Shown: piece by piece, positions 12,030 to 38,148 of the stretch
Layout of the letters: the number at the start of each line of letters is the position of its first letter
Position numbering within the stretch: position 1 is the stretch's first letter
DNA from: a virus
Lineage: Duplodnaviria; Caudoviricetes
Reading direction: 5' to 3' (one strand)
Virus record (IMG/VR): IMGVR_UViG_2551306162_000001
Location: 30,473 to 94,472 of that record
DNA: 64,000 bases
Program-made: the position numbers and the translations under genes
Notes under the pieces: model-generated
Database searches by the model: none
What the model was told of the DNA's origin: nothing
What the model saw: only the letters and a program-made list of their open reading frames with translations

Positions 12030-12808
12030 CGGTCCACCTTCGAACCATAGAAGTGGTTCTGCTCCGCCTTCGGGTCCTTGATGACCCTTCGGCTGCCGTA
12101 CACGGTGTCGTAGATGTACTCGGCGACCGGCACCTTCAGCCAATGGGCGGCGAGCTTGTCACGCCAGGTCGGCTTCCGCTTCGCGATGGTGTTGCCGATC
12201 CGGATGCTCGTGCCGTGCAGCTTCTGGGTGATCACCACCCGCGCCTCCGGGTCGATCAGGTGTTCGTTGCCCCAGTAGCGGGTGGTGTCGTAGTGCTCGG
12301 GCAGGAACTTCGCGTCGACCCGCACGAACTTCTTGGTCGCCTTGGCCTGCGCCGACACCCGGCCGCTGCCCTTCACGGGCCGCTCGTACTTGCGGCAGAT
12401 CTCGTGGTCGTCGAGGGCGTCGAAGGTGTCGCCTGGTCGCAGCTTCGTCACGTCGTACCCGGTGTAGGCCAGCGACTCGAGCGGCATGAACAGGGCGTCG
12501 CTGCGGTGGCCGCGGAGCTTGATCGCTCGGACGCGGCGGTTGCGCTCCAGGTAGCCCTTCTCGGCCTGGTCAGCGTTCAGGCTGGGCTCGCGGTGCAGGT
12601 TGTTGGCCCGCGCGTACTCCTCCGACAGCTGCGTCTCGGCCGTGAACACGACGCCGAGATCACCGGCGGCGCGGGTCTTGTCGACGATCGCCTGGTAGCC
12701 CAGCAGCGGCGCGCCGGCGATGTTGTCGCAGCCGGCCAGCTCGTTCACCGCGGGCAGCTGGACGACCACGGCCGCGTAGTTCGCGTTCTTGGGTGTGGTG
12801 AGTGCCAT
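12026..12808 (-). CDS. RNA ligase (DRB0094-like), N-terminal half of split gene
   Basis: OB-fold N-term (RVRAIKLRGHRS), motif I TQKLHGTS, GSRR. Confidence 0.85.
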   Translation of the reverse strand: MALTTPKNANYAAVVVQLPAVNELAGCDNIAGAPLLGYQAIVDKTRAAGDLGVVFTAETQLSEEYARANNLHREPSLNADQAEKGYLERNRRVRAIKLRGHRSDALFMPLESLAYTGYDVTKLRPGDTFDALDDHEICRKYERPVKGSGRVSAQAKATKKFVRVDAKFLPEHYDTTRYWGNEHLIDPEARVVITQKLHGTSIRIGNTIAKRKPTWRDKLAAHWLKVPVAEYIYDTVYGSRRVIKDPKAEQNHFYGSKVDR

Positions 12809-16064: not shown

Positions 16065-16526
16065 TCAGGCCGCTTCGCGGAGAATGCGTTCCGCCGCCAT
16101 CCGGACTTCGGGCCATCCCGGCGGCGGCGGCCCCTCGCCGTACAGCGCGTACAGCAGGATGTCGGTTCGCACGAACGCGTCGACGATCCCCGCGCGCCGC
16201 TGCTCTGCCTCGCACAGTGCACCGACGAGGTCGAGGAGCCTGCCGGCCTCGAGCGCGCGGGCCTGCCAGTGCGTGCAGGACTCCACCACCTCGGCCAGGC
16301 GCCGGTTCGTCGCCCGGTGGCTGTCGTCGATGGCCTCGGCGACATCGGCCGCGACCCGCCGTTCGGCCGACGCCTTGAGTGCACGCTCCTGCCAGAAGCG
16401 GCGCGACCTCCACACCACACGCAGCAGCCGACTGGCCTTCTGCCGCGCGCGGTCGTGACCGTAGATCACCGCCCCGTACAGGCGTGCCTGGTACGGGGAG
16501 ATGTCGGGCTCATCCACGACGGCCAC
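16065..16526 (-). CDS. hypothetical protein
   Basis: Operonic packing. Confidence 0.5.
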   Translation of the reverse strand: MAVVDEPDISPYQARLYGAVIYGHDRARQKASRLLRVVWRSRRFWQERALKASAERRVAADVAEAIDDSHRATNRRLAEVVESCTHWQARALEAGRLLDLVGALCEAEQRRAGIVDAFVRTDILLYALYGEGPPPPGWPEVRMAAERILREAA

Positions 16527-17361
16527 CGATCAGGCCGCGCTGCTCCCACGAGCTGATGTAGGTGTCGGTGAGCCAGCGGTCGATCGCGGCCTGGTCCGGC
16601 TCGGGCGGCAGGTCGGCCGAGACCGCGAGCTGGTTGAGCTGGTCGAGCAGGTCGGCCGCACGGTCGAGCGCTTCCTCCTTGGTGTGCTCGCCGCGGCGCA
16701 GCTCGGACAGCCAGGTGCGGTCGGGTTCAGGGATGGGGAGCGTGATACGGCTGGTGGTGAGCAGCTCCACGCCCTGGAGGCCGAGCCTGACCATGTGGTA
16801 GGCGAACTTGGTGTCGAATCCGTACACGTCGACCAGCTCGGGTCGATTGGTGTGCTTCTTCGACTTCACGCCGAGCAGCTGGTCTCGCTGGGAGATGAGG
16901 TACCCGCCGAACCGCTTCGCTACCTCGCGCGACAGCCAGCGTTCCGGGTACGCCTGGATGTCGCGGCCGATGTCGGTCTGGACGACGATCTCGGCGGGCG
17001 GAATGAACGCGAGCAGCAGGACCGTCGGGTTGCCTTGCGCTGCCAGCGCGCTCCACTTGCGCAGCGAATAGACGAGCAGGTCGAGGTCTCCAGTGCCGGA
17101 TCGGTGGCCTTCGGGTTGGGTGCGGTAGATGTACTGCTCAAAGAGGGCACCGCCGCCCTTGGTGATCGGGAAGGTCATCGTGGGCGGTTCGATGCAGACC
17201 CCCATCTCGTCGCGGTCGTCGTTGCCGGTGGTGACGCCGTGCAGGCCGGAGCCGACCTGGCCGAGCAGGACGATTCCGTTGCGGGCGATCTCGGCGTTGC
17301 GGTCGCTGCCGTGCGACATGGTGTTCGTGGAGTTGTCGGGCCACTGGTAGGTGGTGGTCAT
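16510..17361 (-). CDS. RlaP-like Pol-beta nucleotidyltransferase
   Basis: VGSGLHG..DDRDEMG, GNPTVL, FDTKFAYHMVRL. Confidence 0.85.
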   Translation of the reverse strand: MTTTYQWPDNSTNTMSHGSDRNAEIARNGIVLLGQVGSGLHGVTTGNDDRDEMGVCIEPPTMTFPITKGGGALFEQYIYRTQPEGHRSGTGDLDLLVYSLRKWSALAAQGNPTVLLLAFIPPAEIVVQTDIGRDIQAYPERWLSREVAKRFGGYLISQRDQLLGVKSKKHTNRPELVDVYGFDTKFAYHMVRLGLQGVELLTTSRITLPIPEPDRTWLSELRRGEHTKEEALDRAADLLDQLNQLAVSADLPPEPDQAAIDRWLTDTYISSWEQRGLIGGRRG

Positions 17362-18044
17362 GCTGCTGGGCCTTTCCGGGCGAGGTCGATCAGGGATTGC
17401 CGCCATGCGATGTCACGGCGTTCCGCGGCGATCTGCTGGTCGAGGTTGGCGTGGATCGGGGTCACGGACGCGACGCCGCGGACCATGGACAGGGCGGTGA
17501 CGGTGGCGGTCGCCTCGTCCTCGCGCAGGTCGGTGTCGAGGACGATGACGTAGCCGGAGTGGCGTGCGCTCACGGTGTCTCGCTTTCGGTAGTCGAGGTG
17601 GCGGTGGATGCCGAACGCGGTGAGGGCTTCGGCGGCGGGGCCGGCCATGAGGTCGGACCAGGAGCAGCCGCTGCTGGCGATCACGACGTCGAGGCGGCGG
17701 GCCGCGAGTTGCTCGCGCCAGTCCGGGCGGTCGTCGACGACGGCGGCCGGGCCGGTGATGGTGACCGTGCGGGATTCGCGGCGCCGCTGGTCGGCTCGGC
17801 GTTGAGCCTTCGTGCGGCCGGGACCGGGGACCGGGCGAAGCGGTACGCCGCTGACGCGGACGATGTTGGCCTCGGTGTTCTCCAGCGATCGGCGTCCGCC
17901 CGACGGCGTGCCGACGATCCGCAGGATCCGGCCGGTCGCGGGCCAGCGGATCTGGTGGTGGCTGCGACCGTCGAAGCCGAGGTACTCCCAGCCGGTGGCT
18001 TGTGCACGGGCCAGGAGGTCTTTCACGTCCTTCTGGCTGGTCAT
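17358..18044 (-). CDS. HicA-like N-terminal domain fused to phage domain
   Basis: GW...GRSHHQI...GTPS. Confidence 0.5.
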   Translation of the reverse strand: MTSQKDVKDLLARAQATGWEYLGFDGRSHHQIRWPATGRILRIVGTPSGGRRSLENTEANIVRVSGVPLRPVPGPGRTKAQRRADQRRRESRTVTITGPAAVVDDRPDWREQLAARRLDVVIASSGCSWSDLMAGPAAEALTAFGIHRHLDYRKRDTVSARHSGYVIVLDTDLREDEATATVTALSMVRGVASVTPIHANLDQQIAAERRDIAWRQSLIDLARKGPAA

Positions 18045-24973: not shown

Positions 24974-25209
24974 GGGTTCTCCTGGTGGTCTTCGAGGTAG
25001 GCGTCGCAGCGGTCGCGGAGTTCGCGGACCTGCGGCGGGGTGAGGTCGGCGCGGAGTTTCGGGCCGGGACCGGTGGCGTTGGTGGCGACGCGCAGGTGCA
25101 TGTGGGCGTCGCCGGGTTCGGCGATGACTTCGACCGCGTAGCCGTCGCGGTCGACGAGCGGGGCGTCGCCGTAGAGGGTTTCGCCCCGCGCGTCGTGGCG
25201 GGTGTTCAC
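24970..25209 (-). CDS. hypothetical protein
   Basis: 4-bp overlaps. Confidence 0.45.
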   Translation of the reverse strand: MNTRHDARGETLYGDAPLVDRDGYAVEVIAEPGDAHMHLRVATNATGPGPKLRADLTPPQVRELRDRCDAYLEDHQENP

Positions 25210-25577
25210 GCCGCCGCCTGCGCCGGGGTTGCGTATCGCAGGTACCAGCCGTTGACCACGACCTTGATGTAGACGTCGTCCTCGTGGGCGAACGGTGCCG
25301 TCTCGTCGAGGATCTGGTCGAGCGCGGCCTTCGCGTGCTCGAAGCAGAACGCTTCCTCGACCACGCTGAGCGAGATCGGGGCGTCGGTGTCCTCGTCGTA
25401 GGCGATGCGCGTCCAGTCGACGTGGACCGACGCGGTGACCGAGTCGCCGTGACGGCAACCGCCTTCGTGGCATTCGGTGCCGACGAAGTCCTCGCCGTTC
25501 CAGTCGGTGTCGAGGCTGACGCGCGGGTCCTTCTCGGGGAGGCCGAGGGCTTCGCGGACCTGGGTTTCGGTGAGCAT
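25206..25577 (-). CDS. acidic hypothetical protein
   Basis: RBS, GC3 bias. Confidence 0.55.
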   Translation of the reverse strand: MLTETQVREALGLPEKDPRVSLDTDWNGEDFVGTECHEGGCRHGDSVTASVHVDWTRIAYDEDTDAPISLSVVEEAFCFEHAKAALDQILDETAPFAHEDDVYIKVVVNGWYLRYATPAQAAA

Positions 25578-25588
25578 GGTGTCGCCTT

Positions 25589-25879
25589 TCAGGCAGCGGC
25601 GGCCGGGGCCGCGAGGAGGACTTCGTGGACGGTGACGTCGGGGCAGGCGCTGATCAGGGCGAGGGTGTCGATGGCCTCGGCCGCGTGCTCCATGCACAGG
25701 TGGTGGGTGTCGGTCCAGGCGCCCGCGCTGTGCGAGTGCTCGACCTCGATGCGGACGAGGGCGTCGTAGGGGCACTCGTCGCACTCGCCGTAGATGACGC
25801 CCGGCTCGCGGGTGGTGAAGCCGCGGAAGTCGGTGGCGGTGACGCCGAGGAGGTCGGCGATGGCCTGGGTGGCGGTCAC
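25589..25879 (-). CDS. hypothetical Zn-binding protein
   Basis: CDEC...C..H. Confidence 0.55.
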   Translation of the reverse strand: MTATQAIADLLGVTATDFRGFTTREPGVIYGECDECPYDALVRIEVEHSHSAGAWTDTHHLCMEHAAEAIDTLALISACPDVTVHEVLLAAPAAAA

Positions 25880-26043
25880 GCCGCCACCTCCAGCGGGGTC
25901 TCGGCGAACTCGCAGTAGGTGACGCGCTCGCCGGTGCGGATGTCGCGCCAGGTCTGGCAGTCCTCGTGCCCGCAGGTGGGGCGGGGGTCCGTGGTGCTCA
26001 CGCGGGGTCCTTTCGTCGGCGGTTCCGGAGGGCCATCCGGTTT

Positions 26044-26083
26044 CAATACGTCGTAATCTAATCCAATGCATTGGACTACGCAA
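26044..26083 (-). promoter_or_regulatory. leftward promoter in pentamer array
   Basis: TTGCGT-N17-TAGATT; palindrome TCCAATGCATTGGA in spacer. Confidence 0.65.
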
Positions 26084-26229
26084 GGGCCTCGCGCGTCGAG
26101 CTTTCCGAGTTCACCACCTCGGCACGCCCCACCCCTCGGCCAGGGACGGCCCGACCAGCGCGATTCATCTGCACATATGCGGCCACAGCGGCTTGCCGGC
26201 GCATGCGTCAGGTAACGATCGAGGCAACG

Positions 26230-26270
26230 CCGTCCAATATCTTGCGTTCTATTCCAATGCACCGTAATGT
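26230..26270 (+). promoter_or_regulatory. rightward promoter in pentamer array
   Basis: TTGCGT-N17-TAATGT. Confidence 0.7.
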
Positions 26271-26323
26271 CGTCGTCAGCGGAACACGCCGCACCAGCCC
26301 CCACCGACACGGAAGGCCCCGAG

Positions 26324-26728
26324 ATGATCACCACCACCTACCGCCGCACCCGCGCCGCCCGCCTGGCTGCGGCCCGCATCATCGGCAAGCGCCTCGCCGG
26401 TGCCCAGGCCGTCCGCCTGGTCCGCGCCCTGCGCTCCCTCAACGGTGTGTGGGTGTCCGGCCAGATCGAGCGAGGCGAGATCATCACCGTGTCGCAGGCC
26501 ATGACCGCCCTCGGCGCCGACGCCGAGCTGGTGCGCCGCTTCGCCTCCCACGCGGGCAAGCGGATCAAGGCCGCCTGGATCGCCCACCACGGCGCGCACG
26601 AGCCGATGCGGATCTGGAAGTTCGTGCACGACCGCCCCCGCCAGGTCGCCGCCTACAAGCCCGCCGACCCCGCCATCCGCGACGGCCTCGCCGCCTACGA
26701 CCGCACCGCCCACCTCGTCGCCGCCTGA
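26324..26728 (+). CDS. basic hypothetical protein, first gene of rightward island
   Basis: RBS GGAAGG, GC3 bias. Confidence 0.6.
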   Translation: MITTTYRRTRAARLAAARIIGKRLAGAQAVRLVRALRSLNGVWVSGQIERGEIITVSQAMTALGADAELVRRFASHAGKRIKAAWIAHHGAHEPMRIWKFVHDRPRQVAAYKPADPAIRDGLAAYDRTAHLVAA

Positions 26729-26782
26729 CACCCCCACCCGGCCGGGGCACACCCGCCCCGGCCCCAACCCGAAAGGCACATC

Positions 26783-27055
26783 ATGAGCACCGAATTCGCG
26801 CCCGAACTGCTCACCTGGACCGCTCGGCCGATCCCCGGCGCCCCGGACCGGGAGGTCATGTTCACCGACCTGTCCTGCGCCGACGGCACCCTCCACGGCG
26901 TCGTTTTCCACCTCAACGGCGAGACCTGGGCGACCGTGATCGGGGTCGACGAGAACGGCACCGAGACCAACAGGGCGCTCGCCCACGGCCCGTTCACGCG
27001 AGACGACGCGAAGGACTGGGTCCGCGACACGCTCCTGCTGCTCACCGCCCCCTGA
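26783..27055 (+). CDS. hypothetical protein
   Basis: RBS GAAAGG. Confidence 0.6.
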   Translation: MSTEFAPELLTWTARPIPGAPDREVMFTDLSCADGTLHGVVFHLNGETWATVIGVDENGTETNRALAHGPFTRDDAKDWVRDTLLLLTAP

Positions 27056-27154
27056 CCGGTTGGCGGGGTCGACGCACAACGGCGTGCGGAAGGGACCAAC
27101 GACGCTCCCCCACAGACCCCGCCAACCCTCCACCGACCGACCGGAAGGACCGAC

Positions 27155-27379
27155 ATGAAACGCATCCGCATCGAAACCGGGTCCGACGTACGCCGCTGGG
27201 ACACCTACGAACTCGACGTGCCCGACGACTTCGACGGCGACACCGACGCCGGACAGCAGTACCTGCGCGACCGGCTCGGCGCCAACAGCGGCATCACCCT
27301 GGTCGACACGAGCTACGAGAACGAGTACGAGAAGTACCCGCCGGAGAAGGCGGACATCAACACCTGGACGGTGATCTGA
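27155..27379 (+). CDS. small acidic protein
   Basis: RBS GAAGGA; D/E-rich. Confidence 0.6.
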   Translation: MKRIRIETGSDVRRWDTYELDVPDDFDGDTDAGQQYLRDRLGANSGITLVDTSYENEYEKYPPEKADINTWTVI

Positions 27380-27565
27380 ATGCCTCGCATCTACCGCGTC
27401 GTCGGTGTCGACAAGGACGACGTCGTCCAGTTCGAGTGGGAGATGGCGACAGCGAGAAGCGCCCGGAAGGCGGCCGCAAGAGCGAATCGGCGCGCCGCCA
27501 AGCTCGACTCCCCGCACACCTGGCGCGCCGAGTACGCCGACATCGAGTGGAAGGCACTCCCGTGA
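27380..27565 (+). CDS. hypothetical protein
   Basis: Operonic packing. Confidence 0.5.
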   Translation: MPRIYRVVGVDKDDVVQFEWEMATARSARKAAARANRRAAKLDSPHTWRAEYADIEWKALP

Positions 27566-28044
27566 TCCTCGCACCCGCCGCCATCCCCGCCCTCGCCGCT
27601 GTCGAGATCGAGTACGGCAACGCCGACCTCGACGACCAGCCCGTCGCCGACCTGCAGCACACCCTCCACACCGCCTGGCTCGAGTACCGCCACCGCGCCA
27701 CCTCCAACCTCGACACCGAGGACCAGGCGTGGACCATCGGCCGCGTCGACGCCGCCCTCGCCCGCCACCGCGTCATCCGCGCCGAGATCATCGACGCCTA
27801 CCAGGTCCTCCACACGGATCTCGACGCGCACACCCCGGTCAGGATCGCCGACCTGCGTGCCGTCGTGCTCGACGCCACCTACTCGCGGCGCCGCCTGTTC
27901 GATCAGGCCATCGAGGCGCTCGGCCGGGAGGAGGGCGTGCATGTGCGGACCGAGGCCGACAGGAAGCGGCTGACCCGCTCCGACCATGACGCCGCGGTGA
28001 CGCTCGCCGGCACCCCGCGCCACCACCTGCTCATCGAAGCGTGA
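27562..28044 (+). CDS. hypothetical protein (wHTH-like C-terminus)
   Basis: VRIADLR...SR..FD.A...G..HHL. Confidence 0.55.
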   Translation: MILAPAAIPALAAVEIEYGNADLDDQPVADLQHTLHTAWLEYRHRATSNLDTEDQAWTIGRVDAALARHRVIRAEIIDAYQVLHTDLDAHTPVRIADLRAVVLDATYSRRRLFDQAIEALGREEGVHVRTEADRKRLTRSDHDAAVTLAGTPRHHLLIEA

Positions 28045-28055
28045 AAGGGACTCCC

Positions 28056-28468
28056 ATGACTGACATTCCCAGCTGGATCGAGGTGGGCGCGCCGGTGGCG
28101 TTCGTGGTCGCTGGCAGCTACGCCGCGTCCGTGGCGTTCGGCACCATCACCAAGATCGGCAAGAGGGACATCATGGCCGAGGTCGACGGCCGCGTCGAGC
28201 GCTTCAACGTCTCCCGGCGCACCGACTACGACGGCGTCGCCTGGCTGTCACGCAGCAGCGGCGGCCGCTGGTCCACCTTCCACGAGCTGGGCCCGGCCGA
28301 CTCGCCGCGCGCAGCTCACATGGCCGCGAAAGCCGGCAGGAGGCGGCCACCTACCGCATGGTCGCCACGTTCGAGAGCTTCCGCAACAGCAGCGAGGTCG
28401 CCGAGGCGAAGGTGCTGCGCGCGGCCGTCGACGAGTGGCTCGCCCTCCACGAGCGGCAGGAGAGCTGA
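28056..28468 (+). pseudogene. frameshifted hypothetical gene
   Basis: Coding-like frame switches near 28333; alternative frame RQEAATYRMV...ERQES* ends 28468. Confidence 0.5.
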
Positions 28469-28662
28469 CGTCAACTCCCCCAACATCACCTCGACCTGCC
28501 GTGTGTGCGCTCAGCTCGTGTTCTGGATCGAGTGTCCGACCGGCGGCTGGTGGGCGCACGACGAGCACCCCGACGACGACCACGACGCGGTCGCGCCGTT
28601 CGAGCCGAAGCAGCGCATGGACGACTCCGGCTGGCTGCACACCGTTCACCCGGGAACCGGCC

Positions 28663-28821
28663 GTGACCGCTGACGACCAGCCCACCGAGCGCCCGGACCT
28701 GGCGGCGTGGCGGAAGCGGGCCGAGCTTCGCCGTTCCAGCGCCGCCCAGCCGATCCCGTCCGGCAAGACCTACCAGCGCAAACCGAAACATCCCCAAGAA
28801 CAGGACAAACGAGATGGATAG
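28663..28821 (+). CDS. small basic phage protein
   Basis: ELRRSSAA.P......Y.RK.KH. Confidence 0.5.
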   Translation: MTADDQPTERPDLAAWRKRAELRRSSAAQPIPSGKTYQRKPKHPQEQDKRDG

Positions 28822-29248
28822 CGCCGAACCTCAGCCGCTGATCCCTGCCCCGGATGCCCCGCACGCCTACGTGGCCGTCAGGCGCATGCACAGCGTCAAC
28901 GCCGACCGGCCCGAGTGGGAGTACCCCGCTTACGTGGTTCCCGAGTGGGACCGCGAACGCATCGACGAACTCCGGCATTTCGGCTTCGCCCTCCTGCCGA
29001 TCGGCCCGGACGGGGACACCGGCACCCGTGCCGTCACCGAGCCGCGCAAGATCACCGACTTCGGCGAGTTCACGCACCTGCCCATCGGGACCGTCGTCGC
29101 GGGCACTGACACCGGCACCGTCTTCGAGCGCGTCGACTGCGGATGGATGCGGATGGGGCACAACATCCCCTGCTACCACTACGAGGTCTTCGAGCACGAC
29201 AAGGCCGCTGTCGTCCTGCGCATGGGGTCGGTGTCCGATGGCGCGTGA
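28814..29248 (+). CDS. hypothetical protein
   Basis: Operonic packing. Confidence 0.55.
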   Translation: MDSAEPQPLIPAPDAPHAYVAVRRMHSVNADRPEWEYPAYVVPEWDRERIDELRHFGFALLPIGPDGDTGTRAVTEPRKITDFGEFTHLPIGTVVAGTDTGTVFERVDCGWMRMGHNIPCYHYEVFEHDKAAVVLRMGSVSDGA

Positions 29249-29414
29249 CCGCGACACCCCGATCAGCCCGAATGCGTGTGGGTTGTGTGATGTCGACCGC
29301 GAGGAGCACCTCAACCTCTGGCACCCGGATGGGCCGGGCAGCGGCTGGCATCAGTGGATCGAACCGACCGACGCGCAACGCAAGCAACGACTCCTCGCTA
29401 GGAGAGCAGCATGA
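29238..29414 (+). CDS. small Zn-binding protein
   Basis: PNACGLC...H...H.W..P. Confidence 0.55.
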   Translation: MARDRDTPISPNACGLCDVDREEHLNLWHPDGPGSGWHQWIEPTDAQRKQRLLARRAA

Positions 29415-29785
29415 ACAGCGACGACCTGGCCAAGCTTCTCGACCCCGAGGCGTGGGCATTCGGTTGGTCGACCCTCGGCGAGGCGATCGAGATCCAGACC
29501 AGGCGCGAGCGGAGCCAGGTGTACGCCGAGCGCCTCATCGCCTCCGGATACACGGTGGTGAAACGTCCCACATGCGGGCCGCCCGAGGAGAAGACGAGCG
29601 GTGTCGTCGAGCCGCTCGTGCTGGAGGACCTGCGTCGCATGGTTGCCGCCACGCAGGACTGGTCGCCGGTCACGATCGTTCAGGTCGCACGGCTGGGCAG
29701 CACCCTCAATCCCAAGCGCGGCGCGTCCGTGCTGACCGCGGTACGGGGCAGCCTCGCCGCGCATCGAAAGCGAGACCTCAAATGA
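29411..29785 (+). CDS. hypothetical protein
   Basis: 4-bp overlaps. Confidence 0.5.
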   Translation: MNSDDLAKLLDPEAWAFGWSTLGEAIEIQTRRERSQVYAERLIASGYTVVKRPTCGPPEEKTSGVVEPLVLEDLRRMVAATQDWSPVTIVQVARLGSTLNPKRGASVLTAVRGSLAAHRKRDLK

Positions 29786-30342
29786 TGAAACCGCTGCTGT
29801 ACCTCGACGTCGACGGCCCGCTGAACCCGTTCGGCGCGAAGCCGGAGAAGCGTCCGGCCGGGTACGAAACCCACCGGCTGATGCCCGCTGAGTGGCTGGC
29901 CCGGCATCCGAACACCCCGCCCGAGCGGGTCACCCCGCTGCGTGTGTGGCTGAACACCGAGCACGGGCCGCGGCTGCTCGCCCTGGCCGGCGTGTTCGAG
30001 CTGGTGTGGGCGACCACCTGGGAGCACGAGGCCAACGCGATGATCGGTCCGCTGATCGGGTTGCCGGAGCTGCCGGTCGTCGAGTGGGACGATCGGCCGC
30101 GGCTGAACGTTTCGGGCACGTACTGGAAGACGCCCCAGCTGATCGACCATGCGGCGGGGCGGCCGTTCGCGTGGGTCGACGACTGCATCACCCGCCGCGA
30201 CCGCGAGTACGTGGACTGCTACCACGACGGGCCCGCGCTCCTGCGCTACGTCGACCCGGCGAAGGGGCTGCTCGACGACGACTTCACGACACTCGAGGCG
30301 TGGGGCACGTGTCAGTCCGGCGTGGCAGGATCGGCCGCATGA
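29782..30342 (+). CDS. HAD phosphatase (Swiss-army-knife RNA-repair-like family)
   Basis: LYLDVDGPLN, VWATTW, WK, AWVDD. Confidence 0.8.
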   Translation: MMKPLLYLDVDGPLNPFGAKPEKRPAGYETHRLMPAEWLARHPNTPPERVTPLRVWLNTEHGPRLLALAGVFELVWATTWEHEANAMIGPLIGLPELPVVEWDDRPRLNVSGTYWKTPQLIDHAAGRPFAWVDDCITRRDREYVDCYHDGPALLRYVDPAKGLLDDDFTTLEAWGTCQSGVAGSAA

Positions 30343-30908
30343 CCACCGACCCGCTCGACCAGCCGATCTACACGCGCCGAGACCTGATGCGGATCGGCCA
30401 CGCCCTCCTGCATGTCCCCCACACCGGGGAGATCGAGTTCACTGAGGGCCGCCCGCCCGCCGAGCCGACCCCCGACGTGCTGGTGTCGATGCTCGACCAG
30501 CTCGCCGGGATCCTGCGGGGGAAGATGGCCGCGCCGACCGAGGTCGAGAAGGCCGTGTGGGCGGCGTGGGGCGAGGTCGACGACAACGACCCGGCGCCGG
30601 TGAAACGGATCGCGGCGGCGCTCGGCATGACCCCGGCCGACGTGGCGTTCATCGTCTACCCGGCTGACGAGTTTGGGCCGTGGGACGACAGCCAGGAACC
30701 CGACCTCGAGGACGCTCATTTCGTGCCCGCCGCCGAGCAGGAAGACGACGCGCACGAGGACGACGAGCCGTGGACGTGCGATGTGTGCGACGAGCCCGCC
30801 GAGGTGATCGTGGTCCAGCCGAGCGAGGACGGCGGTCACCCGCATCCGCTGTGTGCCGAGCATGTCGAGCAGCTCGGCCGCGATCTCAAAGCCGACCGCG
30901 GCGACTAG
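30339..30908 (+). CDS. acidic hypothetical protein with HTH-like and Zn motifs
   Basis: VKRIAAALGMT; CDVC...C..H. Confidence 0.5.
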   Translation: MTTDPLDQPIYTRRDLMRIGHALLHVPHTGEIEFTEGRPPAEPTPDVLVSMLDQLAGILRGKMAAPTEVEKAVWAAWGEVDDNDPAPVKRIAAALGMTPADVAFIVYPADEFGPWDDSQEPDLEDAHFVPAAEQEDDAHEDDEPWTCDVCDEPAEVIVVQPSEDGGHPHPLCAEHVEQLGRDLKADRGD

Positions 30909-30918
30909 GGTGGCCCCG

Positions 30919-31095
30919 GTGAGTTTCCAGGTTGGTGACAAGGTCCGGCTAGGTGAGACGGTGTCCACCGTCTACGAGGTGGTCGAGTTCGACGACGACC
31001 CGGCGATCGTGAAGGTCGTGCGGGCGGATGCCGGCGAGCATCCGGGGGTGTATCCGCACTGGTGGCGGGCAGATCTGCTGCGGCCGGTGGAGTGA
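30919..31095 (+). CDS. small SH3/KOW-like protein
   Basis: FQVGDKVRL; TAGGGT-N7-GTG. Confidence 0.45.
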   Translation: MSFQVGDKVRLGETVSTVYEVVEFDDDPAIVKVVRADAGEHPGVYPHWWRADLLRPVE

Positions 31096-31131
31096 CGGCG
31101 ATTGGGGCAGTGAGGTTTTCACACCAACCCC

Positions 31132-31211
31132 TAGACAGGTCGTAAATTACGACCTATAGTTAGTGATGTCAGCAGGGCAGGCAAACGGCCAGCCCTCACC
31201 CCCAGAGGGAG
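31132..31211 (+). promoter_or_regulatory. promoter + palindromic operator + 5'UTR hairpin, copy 1
   Basis: TAGACA-GGTCGTAAATTACGACC-TATAGT; hairpin 31174-31196. Confidence 0.85.
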
Positions 31212-31217
31212 CATCCG

Positions 31218-31838
31218 ATGACCACCACCACCGCCGGCACCTGGAACAACCGCGTCGACAGCTACGCCGTGTCCGTCGGCCAGACCATCATCGAAAGCCT
31301 CGGCGAGTTCGCCAACGAATACGACATCGACGCCATCGAAGGCGAGTACCGCGCCGCGATCGACGCCGCGCTGCCCGAGGGTCTGCAGCTGGTCGGCGAC
31401 GAGTTCATCGCCGAGCTCGACGCCGACTACAGCGGCTACCCGGCCAGCGACGACGGCCGCCTCGACATCAAGGCCATCGTCGACGAGATCGATTTCTGGG
31501 CCATCGCCGAAAAGCACGAGGCCCCCTCCGTCTGGATCTACGAGGACAACTCCGGCGCCGTCTACATGGAGCGCGGAGGCGATGCCTGGGCGATCGGGCC
31601 GGTCACCGGCGACCTCGAGGGTCAGGCCACCGAGCACGCCAAGGCGTGGAACGCGCGCGACTGGGAGCCCAGCGAGGACGATGGCCAGACCCGCATCGCC
31701 GTCGCGCAGCTCGCCGACCTCGTCCACATCGCCACCTGGAACATCAACACCGGCCTCGACGTCGAGCGCGACGCCTACAGCGACCCCGTCGCGGGCGCCG
31801 GCGGCCGGGCGTTCCTCGGCGTCGACTCCGGCAACTGA
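31218..31838 (+). CDS. highly acidic protein, candidate anti-defence / DNA mimic
   Basis: D/E-rich 206 aa; directly upstream of Aca2-like gene. Confidence 0.6.
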   Translation: MTTTTAGTWNNRVDSYAVSVGQTIIESLGEFANEYDIDAIEGEYRAAIDAALPEGLQLVGDEFIAELDADYSGYPASDDGRLDIKAIVDEIDFWAIAEKHEAPSVWIYEDNSGAVYMERGGDAWAIGPVTGDLEGQATEHAKAWNARDWEPSEDDGQTRIAVAQLADLVHIATWNINTGLDVERDAYSDPVAGAGGRAFLGVDSGN

Positions 31839-31844
31839 CCCCAC

Positions 31845-31878
31845 ATGGCCGCTCGCCCTCCCCCGGGTGAGCGGCCAT
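31845..31878 (+). terminator. 14-bp stem-loop
   Basis: ATGGCCGCTCGCCC / GGGTGAGCGGCCAT. Confidence 0.55.
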
Positions 31879-31898
31879 TCCCACCTTAGGAGCGCCTC

Positions 31899-32330
31899 AT
31901 GCCCACCAACCCCGCCGAGACGTCGGAACTCGACCTAGAGGGCAACCCGATCGGACCGATGACCGCGGCCGAGTTCAAGGTCGTGCGTGAGTACCTCGGC
32001 CTGACCACGAGGTGGCTGTCCGAACAGTTCAACGTCGACGAACGCAGCGTGCAGCGCTGGGAGGGCGGGCAGCGCGTCATCCCCGAAGCTGTCCGCGAAG
32101 CCATGGAAGCCCTGGAGGCGCACGCCGGTGAGATGGTCGGACGTCTCGTCGCCGTGCTCAACGACATGGCCGAGCCCGCGGTGCTCACCTACCGCACCGA
32201 TCGCGAATTCCACCAGCACTTCCCCGAGGAGACCCGTCCGGCCGCGTGGCATCGGGCTGTGGTCGCCCGCGCGGTCCAGGAAGTGCCGGGCGTGTCGATC
32301 GACTACTGGAGCAGTGATGCAGCAGGCTGA
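31899..32330 (+). CDS. Aca2/YdiL (DUF1870)-like HTH regulator
   Basis: MTAAEFKVVREYLGL...RSVQRWEGGQRVIPEAV...YRTDREF...W.RAVVA matches the Aca2 layout. Confidence 0.8.
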   Translation: MPTNPAETSELDLEGNPIGPMTAAEFKVVREYLGLTTRWLSEQFNVDERSVQRWEGGQRVIPEAVREAMEALEAHAGEMVGRLVAVLNDMAEPAVLTYRTDREFHQHFPEETRPAAWHRAVVARAVQEVPGVSIDYWSSDAAG

Positions 32331-33261
32331 CAGTTTGGTGCCAGGCCAGCAGGTCAGCCTTGGCGAGGCGCTGAAACGAGCACCCGCAGCGCGTACATCG
32401 GCGGGACGCATCCGCGCGACCGCCCTGCCGAAGCTGCGCGACCAGACCCGCCAGTTCACCGCGGCGCCGTCCTACGACGAGAGCTCGGTCAGCGCCGAAC
32501 CGTTGCTGCCTCAGATCACGCGTCACCTGGAAATCTCCGAGTTGTACTGGGTTTCGGTCGACATGGCCGCACTGGCAGTGTCGGCCGGTGCGGCACTGGA
32601 TCTCGACGAGATCGACTTCGACGTCTGTCTCGCGCCGTCGCGCACCGGCCTGCTGCTGTTCGACGGCGGCGTCGGTGCGGTCACCTACGGAGACATCGAC
32701 TGCCCTGTCGATGCCGTGTCTTGGGGGCCGATGGCCGGTGGCCGTGGTCTGCTGTTGTGCTTCTACGTCGCCCGCTGGCGGATCCGCGACGGGCTGAGCG
32801 CGGCTGACATCCAGCTCGACGACACGTCCACCCCGCCGTTGATCCCGATCAGCACCACCGAAGACGTCGGCGCTACCGGTAGCGCCGACCGTCCCGCTGA
32901 CACAGTGCGGCGCGCGTTGATCGCGACCTGGCATCTGATGCAGCAGCCCACCGTGGCATGGACCGGCCGGGCCGAACCGGACAAGAAGACCGCTCGCGCC
33001 CACGCCCGGCTCGGCAAGGCGGTCGCCGAGGTCAACATCATCGACCTGCGCCGCCTCTATCAGGCGACCGACCCTGACCACGAGCCGGAGGAGAAACCCG
33101 GCCGGTACTCGCACCGATGGGTCGTGACCGGACACTGGCGCAACCAGCCCCACGGGCCGGACCGCGCGCAGCGCAAACGCATCTGGATCCCGGACCACGT
33201 GAAGGGCCCTGACGGCGCGCCGTTGCTGGTGCGCGAGCGGGTCAATGTGTGGCGCAGATGA
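32317..33261 (+). CDS. hypothetical protein with C-terminal GHWR motif
   Basis: YSHRWVVTGHWRNQPHG...WI..HVKGP. Confidence 0.65.
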   Translation: MQQADSLVPGQQVSLGEALKRAPAARTSAGRIRATALPKLRDQTRQFTAAPSYDESSVSAEPLLPQITRHLEISELYWVSVDMAALAVSAGAALDLDEIDFDVCLAPSRTGLLLFDGGVGAVTYGDIDCPVDAVSWGPMAGGRGLLLCFYVARWRIRDGLSAADIQLDDTSTPPLIPISTTEDVGATGSADRPADTVRRALIATWHLMQQPTVAWTGRAEPDKKTARAHARLGKAVAEVNIIDLRRLYQATDPDHEPEEKPGRYSHRWVVTGHWRNQPHGPDRAQRKRIWIPDHVKGPDGAPLLVRERVNVWRR

Positions 33262-33309
33262 TGGTTTCGGTCTGCGGCGGGGATTGTGTTCCGGGCTTTC
33301 CCGAGAGAC

Positions 33310-33387
33310 TTGACCGGTCGTAATTTACGACCTATAGTTGGGTCATCAGCGGGGCAGGCAACGGCCAGCCCCCACCCCCAGAGGGAG
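33310..33387 (+). promoter_or_regulatory. promoter + palindromic operator + 5'UTR hairpin, copy 2
   Basis: TTGACC-GGTCGTAATTTACGACC-TATAGT; hairpin 33351-33372. Confidence 0.85.
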
Positions 33388-33393
33388 ACCGAC

Positions 33394-33576
33394 ATGGACA
33401 CCAAGCTCGCCGCCAAGATGATCCCCACCATCGCCACCCAGGTCGCCGCCGCCAACACCTACCGCGCCGCCTGCGACGCCGAGACCTTCGCCCGCCGCGT
33501 CGCCCTGATCGCCTCCCCCCAGCAGGCCGCCGAGATCGACGCCCTCCTCGAGACCATGTGGGCCCGCAACCGCTGA
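33394..33576 (+). CDS. 60-aa helical protein under operator copy 2
   Basis: RBS GAGGGAG; MDTKLAAK... Confidence 0.65.
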   Translation: MDTKLAAKMIPTIATQVAAANTYRAACDAETFARRVALIASPQQAAEIDALLETMWARNR

Positions 33577-33583
33577 CCGGCCC

Positions 33584-33605
33584 GGCCCCCGCTCCGGCGG
33601 GGGCC
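33584..33605 (+). terminator. GC-rich stem-loop
   Basis: GGCCCCCGC-TCCG-GCGGGGGCC. Confidence 0.5.
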
Positions 33606-33626
33606 ACCCGGCGTTAGCCTGGCAGG

Positions 33627-33926
33627 GTGCCCGAGGACGACGACCCGATCCCGGCCGAGCAGGCCGCGGTCATGGCGGTGGTGATCGACCACATCGAGCC
33701 GGACCGGCCGCTCACCGCGGAGCAGCTGCACGCGCTCCTGGTCGCCGAGGTGGCCGACCCGCCGAGCCTGGCCGACGTCCGGGACGCGCTGGCGATCCTG
33801 GCCATGCCGCACGTCGGCTACCGGCCGGGTGAGCCTTCGGCTGTCGTGCTGGAGCGGATGCGAGACATGCTCGATGAGGCCGAGTCCGGGCCGCCGCCAA
33901 TCGACCTCGGCGACTTCCGGTACTGA
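33627..33926 (+). CDS. hypothetical protein
   Basis: TAGCCT-N6-GTG leaderless start. Confidence 0.5.
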   Translation: MPEDDDPIPAEQAAVMAVVIDHIEPDRPLTAEQLHALLVAEVADPPSLADVRDALAILAMPHVGYRPGEPSAVVLERMRDMLDEAESGPPPIDLGDFRY

Positions 33927-33949
33927 CCAGCCGCCGCTACGATTCGCTC

Positions 33950-34258
33950 ATGTGTTCGAATCCGATCGTGTGGCGGCTCGGCTCCACGACCGGCCTCGAC
34001 CCCAGCCAGCTCTACCGGGTCCGCGGCGGATGGGCCAGCCCCTCCCCCGCCGCCTGCCCGGCCGGCCACCCGCTCGGCCCGAACCGGGTCATCGTCGGCT
34101 CGGTCATGTGCCCCGACGTGCCCGGCACCGGCTGCCACCGCTCCTACCGGTGCCGCACCTGCGACGCGGTCATCCTGTGGCCGCCCGAGACCGCGGCCTG
34201 CGTGCACCGGCCATTCGACGGCCGATCAGTCCGCGATACCGGCGGCGTTCGCGAGTGA
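33950..34258 (+). CDS. Zn-binding hypothetical protein
   Basis: CPAGH...C....H...CRTC; TACGAT-N6-ATG. Confidence 0.55.
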   Translation: MCSNPIVWRLGSTTGLDPSQLYRVRGGWASPSPAACPAGHPLGPNRVIVGSVMCPDVPGTGCHRSYRCRTCDAVILWPPETAACVHRPFDGRSVRDTGGVRE

Positions 34259-35395
34259 ACGCAGGCTGCCGCTGGCACGGCGCTGCTGCTTGGCCGCGGT
34301 CTTGATCACCGACTTCACCGCGGAGCTGGACCGGAAGTGCTCCGAAGACGCCATCCGCGACTCGCACAGTGCGTTGATCGCCTCGTCGACATCACCGGCC
34401 AGCAGGTGCGCGCGGGCGGTGTCGATCCAGAAGTAGGCTTGACGTTCCTTGGGGAACCCCTTCGGCATCCGCGTGCTGCGGGCGATCTCCATCGCGCGGC
34501 CGGGCTCGCCCAGGTCGACCTCGGCGCACAGCTGGTAGAGCGCCAGGTTGGTCGGACCGACGGGGGTGTCGTAGATGATGCGGTCGCCGCCGATGTGTGG
34601 CGCCATCTGCGCGGCCTCGCGCAGGTGTGAGCGGGAGGCGTCGGCCTGCCCGGTTGCGGCCGCGATGGTGCCGGCACGCATGTGAAGGATGGTGAACACT
34701 GCTCCGGCGGTGGCGTCTTCGTCGACGAGCGGTTCGATGTCGCCGAGGGTCTTCTCGATCAGCCGCAGAGCCTGCTTGGTGGCGCCGACGCGGGCCAGCG
34801 TGGCCGCCTTGACGTAGGCGACGGTGGCAAGGAGCAGCGGGTCGCCGGATCGTGTTGCGGCCCATTCCATCCGCTCGGTCGCGGTGAGGCTGAGGTCGGT
34901 GTATCCGAGCTTGTGCGCGACGGTGTTCGCGGCGCGGTAGGCGTCGGTGAGCAGGGTGTAGGCCGGCGCGCCGACGTCGTTGCCGGAGATGAGAAGCTGA
35001 TCGACGAGGTCAGGCAATGCGCCGATGATCTTGCGGTACTTGGTGTTCTTGCGCCACTCGGCGACCTGGGCGGACTGGAAGCGCAGGTCCTGGATCGGCC
35101 GCGGCTCGAGGTCGGGATCCATGAGGTCGGTCGCGGCGAGCGAGCGCCGCAGGACGGGCAGCACGTCGGCGAGGTCTGCGTAGTCCTCGGCGGTGCCGTA
35201 CAGCCGTGACGCGTCGATCGCGAGCGCGCTGGCGATGGCGCCGATCCAGGTGGTGGATGCGGACGCGTGGCCTTTCTCGACCTTGGACAGCATGGATCGT
35301 GATACGCCGGCCCGGCGCGCAAGTTGTTCCTGGGTGAGGCCGGCCAGGTTGCGGTACTTCGCGATGTTCTCGCCGACGTCGTCGCCCTGCTTCAT
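34226..35395 (-). CDS. XRE HTH regulator with helical/TPR-like C-terminus
   Basis: GLTQEQLARRAGVSRSMLSKVEKG; TAGTGT-N7-ATG. Confidence 0.85.
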   Translation of the reverse strand: MKQGDDVGENIAKYRNLAGLTQEQLARRAGVSRSMLSKVEKGHASASTTWIGAIASALAIDASRLYGTAEDYADLADVLPVLRRSLAATDLMDPDLEPRPIQDLRFQSAQVAEWRKNTKYRKIIGALPDLVDQLLISGNDVGAPAYTLLTDAYRAANTVAHKLGYTDLSLTATERMEWAATRSGDPLLLATVAYVKAATLARVGATKQALRLIEKTLGDIEPLVDEDATAGAVFTILHMRAGTIAAATGQADASRSHLREAAQMAPHIGGDRIIYDTPVGPTNLALYQLCAEVDLGEPGRAMEIARSTRMPKGFPKERQAYFWIDTARAHLLAGDVDEAINALCESRMASSEHFRSSSAVKSVIKTAAKQQRRASGSLRSLANAAGIAD

Positions 35396-35517
35396 GCCCT
35401 GCACACTACGCCTGTTCATTTTGAACAATCATTGAACAATCGAACGTTCACACGGTCGTAGCGTCATCTTCAACGCCTCGCCGGGGCATCGCACCCGGCC
35501 GCATCTGAGGGGATGGG

Positions 35518-35724
35518 ATGACAGCGATAGACGATACACAGCAGGCGGTGCTTGACGCGTTACGCCCGGGCGGACAGCTGTCTCTCTCGGCGCTCGCGGC
35601 CTCGGTCGAAAAGCCGCGGTGGCGTGTGTATCTGGCGGCGCGACGGTTGCGGCGCCGCGGTCTGGTGTGGCAGTACTTCTCCGGCCTGTGGGTCGCTAGC
35701 CCGACCGGCCAGGTCGCGCGATGA
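35518..35724 (+). CDS. small winged-HTH protein
   Basis: wHTH pattern ending RGLV. Confidence 0.5.
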   Translation: MTAIDDTQQAVLDALRPGGQLSLSALAASVEKPRWRVYLAARRLRRRGLVWQYFSGLWVASPTGQVAR

Positions 35725-35984
35725 GCACCCGCAAGGGGCCGAGCGCGTTGGAGCAGTGGATGCTCGCGATGGTCATCAAGTACTGCGACGAAGAACCCCA
35801 GTCGGCAGAGATGCTCGCGAAGCTCACGAACCACAGCGAGCCCCACACCAGGAAGCTGCTGAAGCGGCTGGCCGAGCAGCGGCTGGCGAGTCACGGCGGG
35901 CGCAACCAGTGGCGGCCGACCCTGGCCGGGCTGAACTATGCCGACCAGCACCCGTACCCGCGTCGGCAGGCAGCGGCTTCGTGA
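35721..35984 (+). CDS. small winged-HTH protein
   Basis: L..L....L....W.PT.AG. Confidence 0.5.
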   Translation: MSTRKGPSALEQWMLAMVIKYCDEEPQSAEMLAKLTNHSEPHTRKLLKRLAEQRLASHGGRNQWRPTLAGLNYADQHPYPRRQAAAS

Positions 35985-36738: not shown

Positions 36739-38106
36739 TTACGAGGCTGGCAGCTCAGGCCGCCCAATCTGGTTTGCGTCGTACAGCAGCCGTAGGAGCG
36801 CTTCGGTGATATCGACGCGTTTCGTAGGCAGGGTGAACTCGCCCCGGTAATTTCGGGTCTGGTCCGCCGCAGTCAGTTCCCAGGAACCACTGACTTCCTC
36901 AGCCTCTGGCGGGACATTGTTGAGCACGAGCAGCACGAAGTCGCCGGCGATCGGTGAGTAGCGACGGGGACGAACATCGGCGAGGTTCATGAACGCCGCG
37001 GCAGAATCATCGCGAGGATTCACGAGCCGGAACCCTTCAGGTATCTGAAAGTCACTGCGCCCGAGGCCCGCGATGGCAGGCCAGCCAGGCGTTGACCCGA
37101 GCAGCGGGGGGCGTGTGCCCCACGCAGGAGGCAGGTCCGGAAGAATGTCATCCACCGCGTCCTGTGCTTTCACTATGCCAGCTACACCGGACTGGAATTC
37201 GACCTCGATCTCCACCTCGCGCAAGTACGACTGACCATGGTTCACGATCTGCAGGTGCGGTCGCTCGGCTTTGCTCCAGATCACCGCGAGCAAGAACTCA
37301 CTCCACGACTTTTTGACTAGGTATTCCCAGTTATCGAGCTCCTCGTCGAACTCCGCGGCGCTGCGGTTGTCTACGCCCAGGTAGCCGAGTGAGCCGAACG
37401 CGCGGCCGCCCTGGGCGCGGGCGCTCCCTCGGGCGAGGTGTTTGCGTACGTCGTCGATCCACTGCTGCTTCAAGCCAGATGGATACTTGGCCCGGTATGC
37501 GGCGCCTGTGACCAAAACGTCAACGTTGGCATCCGGCGGGCCGCCCGCTCGCAGCCTAGCGACGAGGTCGTCGATCTCCGCTGCGTTCGCTTCCCGTGTC
37601 TCGCTGGTTGGGCGAACGTAGACTGCCCCGTTGCGGAGCAGCGGAGTGCTCTTGGTGCCGTCCGAGAATTCCTTCTGACATGCGTAGATGGTTGATCCGT
37701 GCTCAGGCGGGTCGACCATGATGATGAGGACGACCTTGGTTGTGCCCGCTACCGGGAGTTGCCGGATCTCCCATCCAGGTTTGCTGCCGAATCCGGTGTA
37801 CTGGCCGACGCGGCTACGCAGGTCCTTCTCGTCGATCTGGGCGACGCCGTCGATTGATCCGTGTGCAACGCCGATCACCATGAGTGCGTGGCCGGCGAAG
37901 TACTTCGCCGCGACGTCCGGCATGCGGTTGGACGCACCCAGGATGTACTTCGCGACCTTCGCCTGACCGCTCTTCGTTGTGACGTCGACGTCGCTCTTGG
38001 CCTCTAGGTAGTGGGTCTCGGTCCTGTCGCCGTTGTCTCGGATGTACTCGACGATCTCCCACAGTTGCCTGTCACCCTTGGGGTAGACGGTGAGGTCAAG
38101 GTCCAT
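36739..38106 (-). CDS. Schlafen/AlbA_2-like domain protein (moron)
   Basis: ETHYLEAK...ILGASN...MVIGV...YVR; atypical codon usage; TACGAT-N6-ATG. Confidence 0.7.
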   Translation of the reverse strand: MDLDLTVYPKGDRQLWEIVEYIRDNGDRTETHYLEAKSDVDVTTKSGQAKVAKYILGASNRMPDVAAKYFAGHALMVIGVAHGSIDGVAQIDEKDLRSRVGQYTGFGSKPGWEIRQLPVAGTTKVVLIIMVDPPEHGSTIYACQKEFSDGTKSTPLLRNGAVYVRPTSETREANAAEIDDLVARLRAGGPPDANVDVLVTGAAYRAKYPSGLKQQWIDDVRKHLARGSARAQGGRAFGSLGYLGVDNRSAAEFDEELDNWEYLVKKSWSEFLLAVIWSKAERPHLQIVNHGQSYLREVEIEVEFQSGVAGIVKAQDAVDDILPDLPPAWGTRPPLLGSTPGWPAIAGLGRSDFQIPEGFRLVNPRDDSAAAFMNLADVRPRRYSPIAGDFVLLVLNNVPPEAEEVSGSWELTAADQTRNYRGEFTLPTKRVDITEALLRLLYDANQIGRPELPAS

Positions 38107-38148
38107 CACACGATCGTAAACATCGCCACCGACACGCACGATCGAGTT

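Follow-up and report, generated by a model that had tools for sequence, protein, structure and literature searches.

A predicted Aca2-type regulon with two operator-promoter-leader modules and exchangeable cargo genes in an actinobacterial phage

Anatomy of the locus

The locus described here lies within a rightward gene block (24985-33926) of the window, which is the whole 64,000-nucleotide stretch of viral DNA that was analyzed (positions 30,473 to 94,472 of the IMG/VR record IMGVR_UViG_2551306162_000001). It comprises two regulatory modules, the gene of a helix-turn-helix (HTH) regulator of the Aca2/YdiL family, and three cargo genes named after the length of their products in amino acids (aa), orf206, orf314 and orf60, which together are proposed to form an Aca2-type regulon. 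The contig that contains the window has a length of 94,472 bp (68% G+C) and belongs to an actinobacterial assembly of 6.8 Mb (71.6% G+C, 99.99% complete). Genes for terminase, portal, major head protein and a 1,919-aa tape measure protein are found in the first 30 kb of this contig, and the window adds eight tRNAs, an RNA ligase, a nucleotidyltransferase, a DNA methyltransferase and a RecE-like exonuclease. This combination of structural and other phage genes identifies the contig as a tailed phage, whether integrated as a prophage, kept as an episome or sequenced together with the host, in agreement with the initial annotation (made from the sequence alone), which had suggested an actinobacterial phage as the source. 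Neither a terminal repeat nor a host flank was seen on the contig, and window positions 30800-34000 had no blastn match among 50,697 phage records. A look-up of sequencing runs listed only contigs from wastewater and sludge, each with a small share, and no RNA data set.

The two modules (31132-31217 and 33310-33393, about 85 bp each) are built alike, with a near-consensus promoter, a putative operator and a conserved two-hairpin 5' untranslated region (5'UTR) (Table 1). In both promoters the perfect 17-bp palindrome GGTCGTAAWTTACGACC fills the spacer between the -35 and -10 elements exactly. Two copies occur in the window against a chance expectation of 0.03, none of 100 shuffles contained two matches even when 3 mismatches were allowed, and a scan of the complete 6.8-Mb assembly that tolerated up to 2 mismatches gave no further copy. 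The exact palindrome was absent from 400 genomes of the same family, among which a single match with 1 mismatch was detected. P1 and P2 are also the sole 10/12 sigma-70-like matches between 24.5 and 36.5 kb, where 0.5 would be expected. Two exact operator matches in IMG/VR (L003 and L004) were rejected as chance occurrences, being located on low-GC contigs and not accompanied by a module, and the combined operator and hairpin pattern gave no match in either IMG/VR or the JGI metagenomes.

Downstream of the promoters, hairpin 1 starts 13-14 bases past the -10 element in both modules and is followed by CACCCCCAGAGGGAG, which is exact in both leaders (31197-31211 and 33373-33387). For both copies, RNAfold predicted hairpin 1 as a 5-bp stem, an A/A 1x1 internal loop, a 3-bp stem and a loop of 4-5 nt, together with a small second CCC/GGG hairpin that covers the Shine-Dalgarno sequence; hairpin 1 is closed by an A-U pair in the first copy and by a G-C pair in the second. 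The initial annotation had described two modules with a palindrome as the exact promoter spacer, a hairpin with a compensatory A-U to G-C change in each, a strong hairpin behind each of the two cargo genes that it named, and one regulator controlling two promoters. All of these elements were recovered, and a single regulator gene does lie between the two operator-bearing promoters.

Table 1. Coordinates in the window of the features of the two-module locus
Feature	Position	Strand	Remarks
Promoter P1	31132..31160	+	-35 TAGACA; spacer is the putative operator GGTCGTAAATTACGACC (31138-31154); -10 TATAGT; same core in the same place in a Nocardia contig (L007)
Hairpin 1, module 1	31174..31196	+	A-GGGC-A-GGC-AAACG-GCC-A-GCCC-U; 62.4 bits with model R1
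Hairpin 2 and ribosome site, module 1	31197..31217	+	CCC 31200-31202 predicted to pair with GGG 31207-31209 of the GGGAG Shine-Dalgarno sequence; ATG 31218
orf206	31218..31838	+	First cargo gene; acidic product; N-domain is residues 1-101
14-bp hairpin in the orf206/regulator gap	31845..31878	+	-31 kcal/mol, z -4.6; hairpin in the same position in L007
HTH regulator, Aca2/YdiL family	31899..32330	+	143 aa; assigned from Pfam, PHROG, PDB relatives, homologues and recognition helix
orf314	32317..33261	+	AcrVA2-like fold (predicted model); start overlaps the regulator stop (ATGA); phrog_15934
Promoter P2	33310..33338	+	-35 TTGACC; putative operator GGTCGTAATTTACGACC (33316-33332); -10 TATAGT
Hairpin 1, module 2	33351..33372	+	G-GGGC-A-GGC-AACG-GCC-A-GCCC-C; 65.1 bits with model R1
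Hairpin 2 and ribosome site, module 2	33373..33393	+	CACCCCCAGAGGGAG; ATG 33394
orf60	33394..33576	+	Second-promoter cargo; orphan small helical protein
Terminator-like hairpin after orf60	33584..33605	+	GGCCCCCGC-uccg-GCGGGGGCC, 9 G-C pairs; hairpin with U-rich tail in the same position in L007
orf99	33627..33926	+	Conserved neighbour (60% identity to L007); bounds the variable cargo slot on the right, not cargo

The regulator and its predicted operators

The relationship of the regulator to Aca2, which had first been noticed by eye, is now supported by profile and structure databases. The protein matches PF08965 (Aca2_YdiL) with 26.2 bits, above the gathering threshold of 23.8, residues 21-117 being aligned to positions 1-99 of the 118-position profile, and its nearest relatives in the Protein Data Bank (PDB) are Aca2 structures (7vjo, E 4.3e-5; 8w35, E 7.9e-4; 7b5j, E 0.013), followed by an unrelated HTH protein at E 0.1. 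Matches to phrog_664 and phrog_955, both DNA-binding proteins, were also obtained. Its 46 homologues (approximately 35-59% identity) come from Streptomyces, Nocardia and metagenomes, and several of them are named DUF1870 or Aca2/YdiL-like in their sources. As in Aca2/YdiL systems, a predicted inverted-repeat operator is located inside the core promoter of the regulator's own operon, P1, and also inside P2.

A search with the single regulator protein found only a partial Zoogloea HTH match among genome contigs and nothing in IMG/VR; an alignment-based search returned 54 IMG/VR loci with relatives of the regulator. In about 30 of the 54, the covariance model R1 and a script located the leader upstream of the regulator gene and on its strand, and a promoter with a 17-19 bp spacer, palindromic in most clades, precedes the leader almost always. 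Besides the window, 31 loci, mostly from IMG/VR, show the order -35, 17-19 bp spacer, -10, hairpin and ATG on the strand of the regulator. Another relative is a 95-kb Nocardia sp. contig (L007), whose regulator is 55% identical and in which both modules recur at matching positions, with a -35 element, the operator core GTCGTAATTTACGAC as spacer, a -10 element, hairpin 1, CACCC-n-CCAAGGG and ATG; its second copy of hairpin 1 contains one G-U pair.

Comparison of these loci revealed that, from clade to clade, the palindrome varies in step with the recognition helix of the Aca2-like regulator. The helix V-Q-R-W occurs with the operator GTCGTAAnTTACGAC, V-R-H-W with CTTCCTAAnTTAGGAAG or CTTCCAGATCTGGAAG, V-H-R-W with TGTCCGACTTCCTGACA and V-N-R-W with TGTCATAATTTATGACA. 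Because of this co-variation, the operator appears to be read by the Aca2-like protein and not by the 400-aa XRE-family regulator that is encoded convergently with the regulon (34226-35428, - strand); it is the best support found here for the Aca2-like protein as the putative operator reader. Aca2-type control of the DNA operator by the regulator is considered very probable.

When the whole genome was scanned with model R1, the two modules were the only strong matches (65 and 62 bits), the next reaching 22.5 bits, and the predicted regulon is for this reason limited to two promoters. A weak R1 match in the window (26735-26785, + strand; 11 bits, E 0.35), made up of a different G+C-rich hairpin, CCCGAAAGG and the ATG of the open reading frame (ORF) at 26783-27055, is probably not the same motif.

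Conservation of the leader hairpins

Covariation of hairpin 1 was evaluated in 34 unique sequences, which were chosen by an anchor that put no constraint on the variable positions. At the outer variable position, 31 of these sequences can form a pair (UA 15, GC 11, CG 3 and GU 2), and at the inner one 29 can (CG 14, GC 10 and UA 5). Hairpin 1 thus covaries solidly, with three pair types at two positions and across clades. A second hairpin is predicted in all copies, as expected of an Aca2-type two-hairpin leader. In the Streptomyces-type clade, the place of hairpin 2 is taken by CCGG-AAGGAnC-CCGG, with the ribosome site enclosed in it; the predicted two-hairpin plan persists across clades while its details change. 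No Rfam family corresponding to the leader was found.

The leader also occurs in other arrangements among the relatives. Mycobacterium phage Bipper (L013/L014, genes 43-49) and a Typha-like contig of 75,687 bp (L044) contain five to six promoter-plus-leader modules in approximately 5 kb, with an integrase gene adjacent, a different small gene behind each copy, and GGU/ACC instead of GGC/GCC as the inner stem; their spacer motif, CCGTCTAGTGAGC, is not obviously palindromic. At L008:2664-2714, a hairpin copy was observed between two genes of one operon, with neither promoter nor operator upstream.

Cargo genes

Comparison with the Nocardia contig showed that all three cargo positions hold non-homologous genes (206 versus 162 aa, 314 versus 216 aa, and 60 versus 64 aa), around which the regulator (55% identity) and orf99 (60%) are conserved. 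Such a swap of cargo inside a conserved frame is typical of accessory and anti-defence slots, and the cargo slots are taken to be accessory and exchangeable, filled most likely with genes for anti-defence or inter-element conflict. An HTH-like 168-aa family was also detected among the cargo families of the relatives. The initial annotation had named two cargo genes, of 206 and 60 aa, and both are present; it had left out orf314, which is coupled to the regulator gene and is the sole cargo gene whose product has an anti-defence-like fold.

The AF2 model of the orf314 product has a predicted local distance difference test (pLDDT) score of 86 and a predicted template modelling (pTM) score of 0.85. 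Foldseek placed AcrVA2 (7ci2_A) first with E 3e-4 and probability 0.98, the next match having E 0.13, and VIA gave AcrVA2 a Z score of 9.5 (next 3.9), with a root-mean-square deviation of 4.3 over 203 aligned residues (model 36-297 versus chain 0-316). No PDB structures other than the AcrVA2 crystal structures were significantly similar, and the three-domain AcrVA2 fold is present over its full length in the predicted model. By sequence, neither phmmer nor a profile of 38 sequences linked orf314 to AcrVA2 in the PDB up to E 10 or matched any other PDB chain, so that its membership in this family rests on the fold. R267, G272, H273 and W274 do not vary among 38 homologues, and H266, W268 and R275 hardly do; at the level of the motif, this C-terminal H-R-W ... 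G-H-W-R signature recalls H286, R288 and H291 of AcrVA2, residues reported to be essential (bioRxiv 10.1101/2022.11.29.518452). About 145 actinobacterial homologues of orf314 were found, some with a precomputed match to Pfam PF26125, a family of which a literature search found no mention. Homologues directly follow the regulator in five loci (L016, L022, L027, L036 and L065), L022 having the same trio of genes as the window. The predicted model indicates that orf314 probably encodes an effector of the AcrVA2/FinQ family; whether it acts like these proteins against a host or rival-element target is judged an even call.

The orf206 product is, as the initial annotation had noted, very acidic (net charge about -30, isoelectric point 4.05). 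It had been suggested there as a possible DNA mimic, in the manner of anti-restriction proteins like Ocr and ArdA, but a high negative charge by itself says little among the proteins of a high-GC actinobacterium. It has no family in Pfam, PHROG, PADLOC or NCBIfam and no usable Atlas match, its predicted structure had no Foldseek match below E 0.3 and a best VIA Z score of 4.4, and the N-domain model (pLDDT >90) matches no solved fold. A homologue of the N-domain immediately precedes the regulator in 10 loci (L009, L011, L019, L022, L023, L024, L029, L032, L043 and L046), making it the commonest first gene of actinophage Aca2-type operons among the loci fetched; in the window it is fused to an extra acidic C-terminal half, which is shared with one protein only (P0002). 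Further orf206 homologues occur on three phage-like contigs (L069-L071) that have neither the leader motif nor an adjacent Aca2-like gene. On one of these, which is metagenomic, a 71-aa gene (L070:4680-4895, - strand), located 1.6 kb from the orf206 homologue, has a precomputed Pfam match to Acb2_Tad1_hairpin, an anti-CBASS/Thoeris sponge family. An anti-defence role of orf206 is a tentative suggestion, somewhat less probable than its opposite.

A search of 1.84 billion representatives with orf60 returned only the protein itself and one low-complexity match, and its Atlas matches are generic short helices; an anti-defence role for this protein is doubtful. Of the strong hairpins behind the two promoter-proximal cargo genes, the one between orf206 and the regulator gene is likely to be a partial terminator or attenuator.

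Proposed mechanism

Based on the anatomy of the locus and the conservation described above, we consider it likely that it represents an Aca2-type negative-feedback regulon of a siphovirus-like actinophage of about 94 kb, working as follows. Upon phage entry into a cell free of the regulator, the near-consensus promoters P1 and P2 would both fire. Transcription from P1 would yield orf206 and, by read-through of the 14-bp attenuator hairpin, the regulator and the translationally coupled orf314, and P2 would supply orf60. As the regulator accumulates, it would bind, presumably as a dimer, to the 17-bp palindrome in both promoter spacers and exclude RNA polymerase. The transcript would start a few bases upstream of the conserved two-hairpin leader, to which the regulator may also bind and thereby block translation, by analogy with Aca2 of phage ZF40. 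The strong hairpins after orf206 and orf60 would limit read-through, and the outcome would be a short, capped burst of cargo expression.

Alternative explanations

Several observations count against this regulon, either against its control at the RNA level or against the anti-defence role of its cargo. As for the leaders, their folding energies are no better than those of shuffled sequence (z -0.7 and -1.2), and support for the hairpins comes for this reason from conservation. In shuffles, the pairing of hairpin 1 averaged about 15 and the observed values were reached in 0 of 10,000, a statistic that overstates independence because the relatives share ancestry. Hairpin 2 is invariant in the clade of the window, and since its columns do not vary among relatives, covariation speaks neither for nor against it; its GGG would be conserved as part of the ribosome site anyway. 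In addition, the hairpin bears no sequence relationship to the DNA operator or its half-site, and it stays nearly constant across clades in which operators and recognition helices diverge. Because of this constancy, a host factor, plain stability or a translation element would fit as well. It is conceivable, then, that the regulator does not bind the leader hairpins and acts at transcription only, with the hairpins serving as an RNase-protecting 5' stabilizer, a brake that sequesters the Shine-Dalgarno sequence or a site for a host RNA-binding factor. The promoterless intra-operon copy in L008 would suit such a role, and electrophoretic mobility shift assays of predicted Aca10 and Aca12 RNA motifs have been negative so far (PMC13551039). 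On the other hand, the motif was found next to Aca2-like genes only, among loci that were chosen for that gene, and ZF40 Aca2 binds two 5'UTR hairpins, while an actinobacterial RNA motif with intra-operon copies has been reported for Aca2 operons (PMC13551039). We regard a leader that is not bound by the regulator as possible but somewhat doubtful; following the analogy with ZF40 Aca2, we lean moderately towards binding of the leader RNA by the regulator.

As for the cargo, none of orf206, orf314 and orf60 has a sequence match to any defence or anti-defence family in PADLOC, NCBIfam, Pfam or PHROG. The host assembly yielded neither a Cas1 match nor a CRISPR array, which makes the label of anti-CRISPR unlikely in this host; some other defence system or a rival mobile element is more likely to be the target of the cargo than CRISPR. 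The sole k-mer repeat with CRISPR-like spacing in the genome is a 24-mer with 4 copies (G000:C69:45057). Moreover, most DUF1870 proteins are not encoded beside known anti-CRISPR (acr) genes, only about 3% being so located (PMC9410906). The regulon might thus be real and still serve as a general early-gene switch, in which the Aca2-like protein is a Cro-like delayed-early repressor and the cargo comprises genes for host takeover, superinfection exclusion or other accessory tasks outside anti-defence. The runs of modules before many unrelated small genes in Bipper and the Typha-like contig, beside an integrase gene, would suit such a switch, as would the HTH-like 168-aa family among the cargo and the absence of CRISPR-Cas from the host. 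However, one cargo gene has an AcrVA2 fold in its predicted model, close relatives exchange cargo within a frame that is itself conserved, in the manner of acr loci, and the presence of only two modules in this phage implies that most of its early genes are outside this control. The general early-gene switch is considered unlikely. It might even be speculated that the N-domain of orf206 (MTTT-x-YGTW ... DYDIDAI ... YRAAI-x-ALP) represents a new anti-defence family with a new fold which, together with orf60, is directed against a defence other than CRISPR in mycolic-acid actinobacteria or others of high GC content, although we hold this to be less likely than not.

It is very unlikely that the palindromes are instead operators of the 400-aa XRE regulator acting as a prophage immunity repressor, with the Aca2-like protein targeting sites elsewhere: that gene does strongly match phrog_5823 ('transcriptional regulator', E 2e-67) and lies 0.6 kb away, but the operator changes with the Aca2-like recognition helix across about 30 loci, and the Aca2-like gene is located within the operon it would regulate, as in every characterized aca locus. 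Equally improbable is a toxin-antitoxin-like pair, with the regulator as an MqsA-like antitoxin that autoregulates through a palindrome and orf314 as an mRNA-destroying toxin, since, despite a weak match of the regulator to the MqsA family TIGR03830 (31.6 bits against a cut-off of 61.8), the annotation of Bipper gene 48 as 'Antitoxin', the overlap of the regulator and orf314 genes and the mRNA loss triggered by AcrVA2 (bioRxiv 10.1101/2022.11.29.518452), a homologue of orf314 is found behind the regulator in no more than 5 of about 55 loci of relatives, so that the pair is not obligate, and Aca2 is structurally similar to MqsA and yet no antitoxin (PMC9410906). Overall, the reading of the locus as an Aca2-type regulon controlled through promoter, operator and leader is supported, and that of its cargo as anti-defence genes is plausible.

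Other features of the phage contig

Several further features were noted in the window. The eight tRNA genes form a cluster (4561-6413, - strand) specifying Tyr, Ile, Thr, Pro, Met, Leu-TAG, Trp and Leu-CAA, near which the RNA ligase (phrog_968; 12026-12808) and the nucleotidyltransferase (phrog_388; 16510-17406) are encoded, both on the - strand. The 775-aa DNA methyltransferase (phrog_116; 52988-55315) and the 458-aa RecE-like exonuclease (phrog_149; 59984-61360) are also on the - strand, as is a 466-aa ORF (36739-38139) that had no PADLOC match. An 87-aa ORF (35721-35984) is divergent from the 400-aa XRE gene, and the two may constitute the immunity switch of the phage.

Significance and comparison with known systems

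To our knowledge, few anti-defence proteins are known from actinobacterial phages. The present locus offers a fully parsed example of what appears to be the Aca2 DNA-plus-RNA design in an actinophage, with two operator-promoter-leader units and one regulator, and the comparative set supplies testable pairs of operator and recognition helix as well as a covarying leader hairpin. It may also be useful as a signpost, as three swappable cargo genes, one AcrVA2-like, one recurrent and acidic, and one orphan, are placed under putative Aca2-type control.

In Cluster K mycobacteriophages, SAS/ESAS are conserved motifs that include the ribosome site and are repeated just upstream of the start codons of several genes. 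The multi-copy state in Bipper and the Typha-like contig looks similar; however, the sequence differs, and here each copy has its own promoter, operator and covarying hairpin, in association with an Aca2-like gene.

The closest known design is that of the Aca2 operons. Aca2 of phage ZF40 represses the acr-aca promoter via inverted repeats and blocks translation via two conserved 5'UTR hairpins, and two Aca2 RNA motifs have been described, a proteo-motif and an "actino-motif" (PMC13551039). In these operons, the DNA motif overlaps the promoter, transcription starts 10-15 nt downstream and the RNA motif lies just past the start; Aca proteins are further predicted to control neighbouring operons, leader motifs are also found between genes within an operon, and DEAD/HA helicases are common (PMC13551039). 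All of these published features are seen here or among the relatives, including the intra-operon leader in L008 and a DEAD/HA helicase in L010, the actino-motif being matched by description, and for this reason the locus is a further case of a published class and its design is not new. With the acrIF8-aca2 operon of Pectobacterium phage ZF40 and the actino-motif operons (Birkholz 2019 and 2024; Feussner et al. NAR 2026, PMC13551039) it shares a small cargo gene followed by a DUF1870/Aca2_YdiL HTH gene, an inverted repeat in the core promoter, a two-hairpin 5'UTR that extends from the predicted start to the ribosome site, and predicted sites of the regulator also at a neighbouring operon. In contrast, the regulator is only distantly similar to Aca2 (E 4e-5 to PDB Aca2) and is longer by 20 residues at its N-terminus; the sequences of operator and hairpin are different, with the actino-motif compared by description; the window carries no known acr gene and its host no CRISPR-Cas; and an attenuator hairpin parts the cargo from the regulator.

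For orf314, the known counterparts are AcrVA2 of Moraxella bovoculi and FinQ (PDB 7CI1 and 7CI2). Although no sequence-level match exists and identity is approximately 8-13%, orf314 shares with them a similar length and the full-length fold of its predicted model, and its C-terminal His/Arg-rich motif recalls residues of AcrVA2. Orthologues of AcrVA2, FinQ among them, are common on mobile elements whose hosts do not have Cas12a (bioRxiv 10.1101/2022.11.29.518452), and orf314 is likewise located on a mobile element in a host of this kind, as is usual in the family. An AcrVA2-like gene in a host free of both Cas12a and CRISPR would be helpful for finding further targets of the AcrVA2 family.

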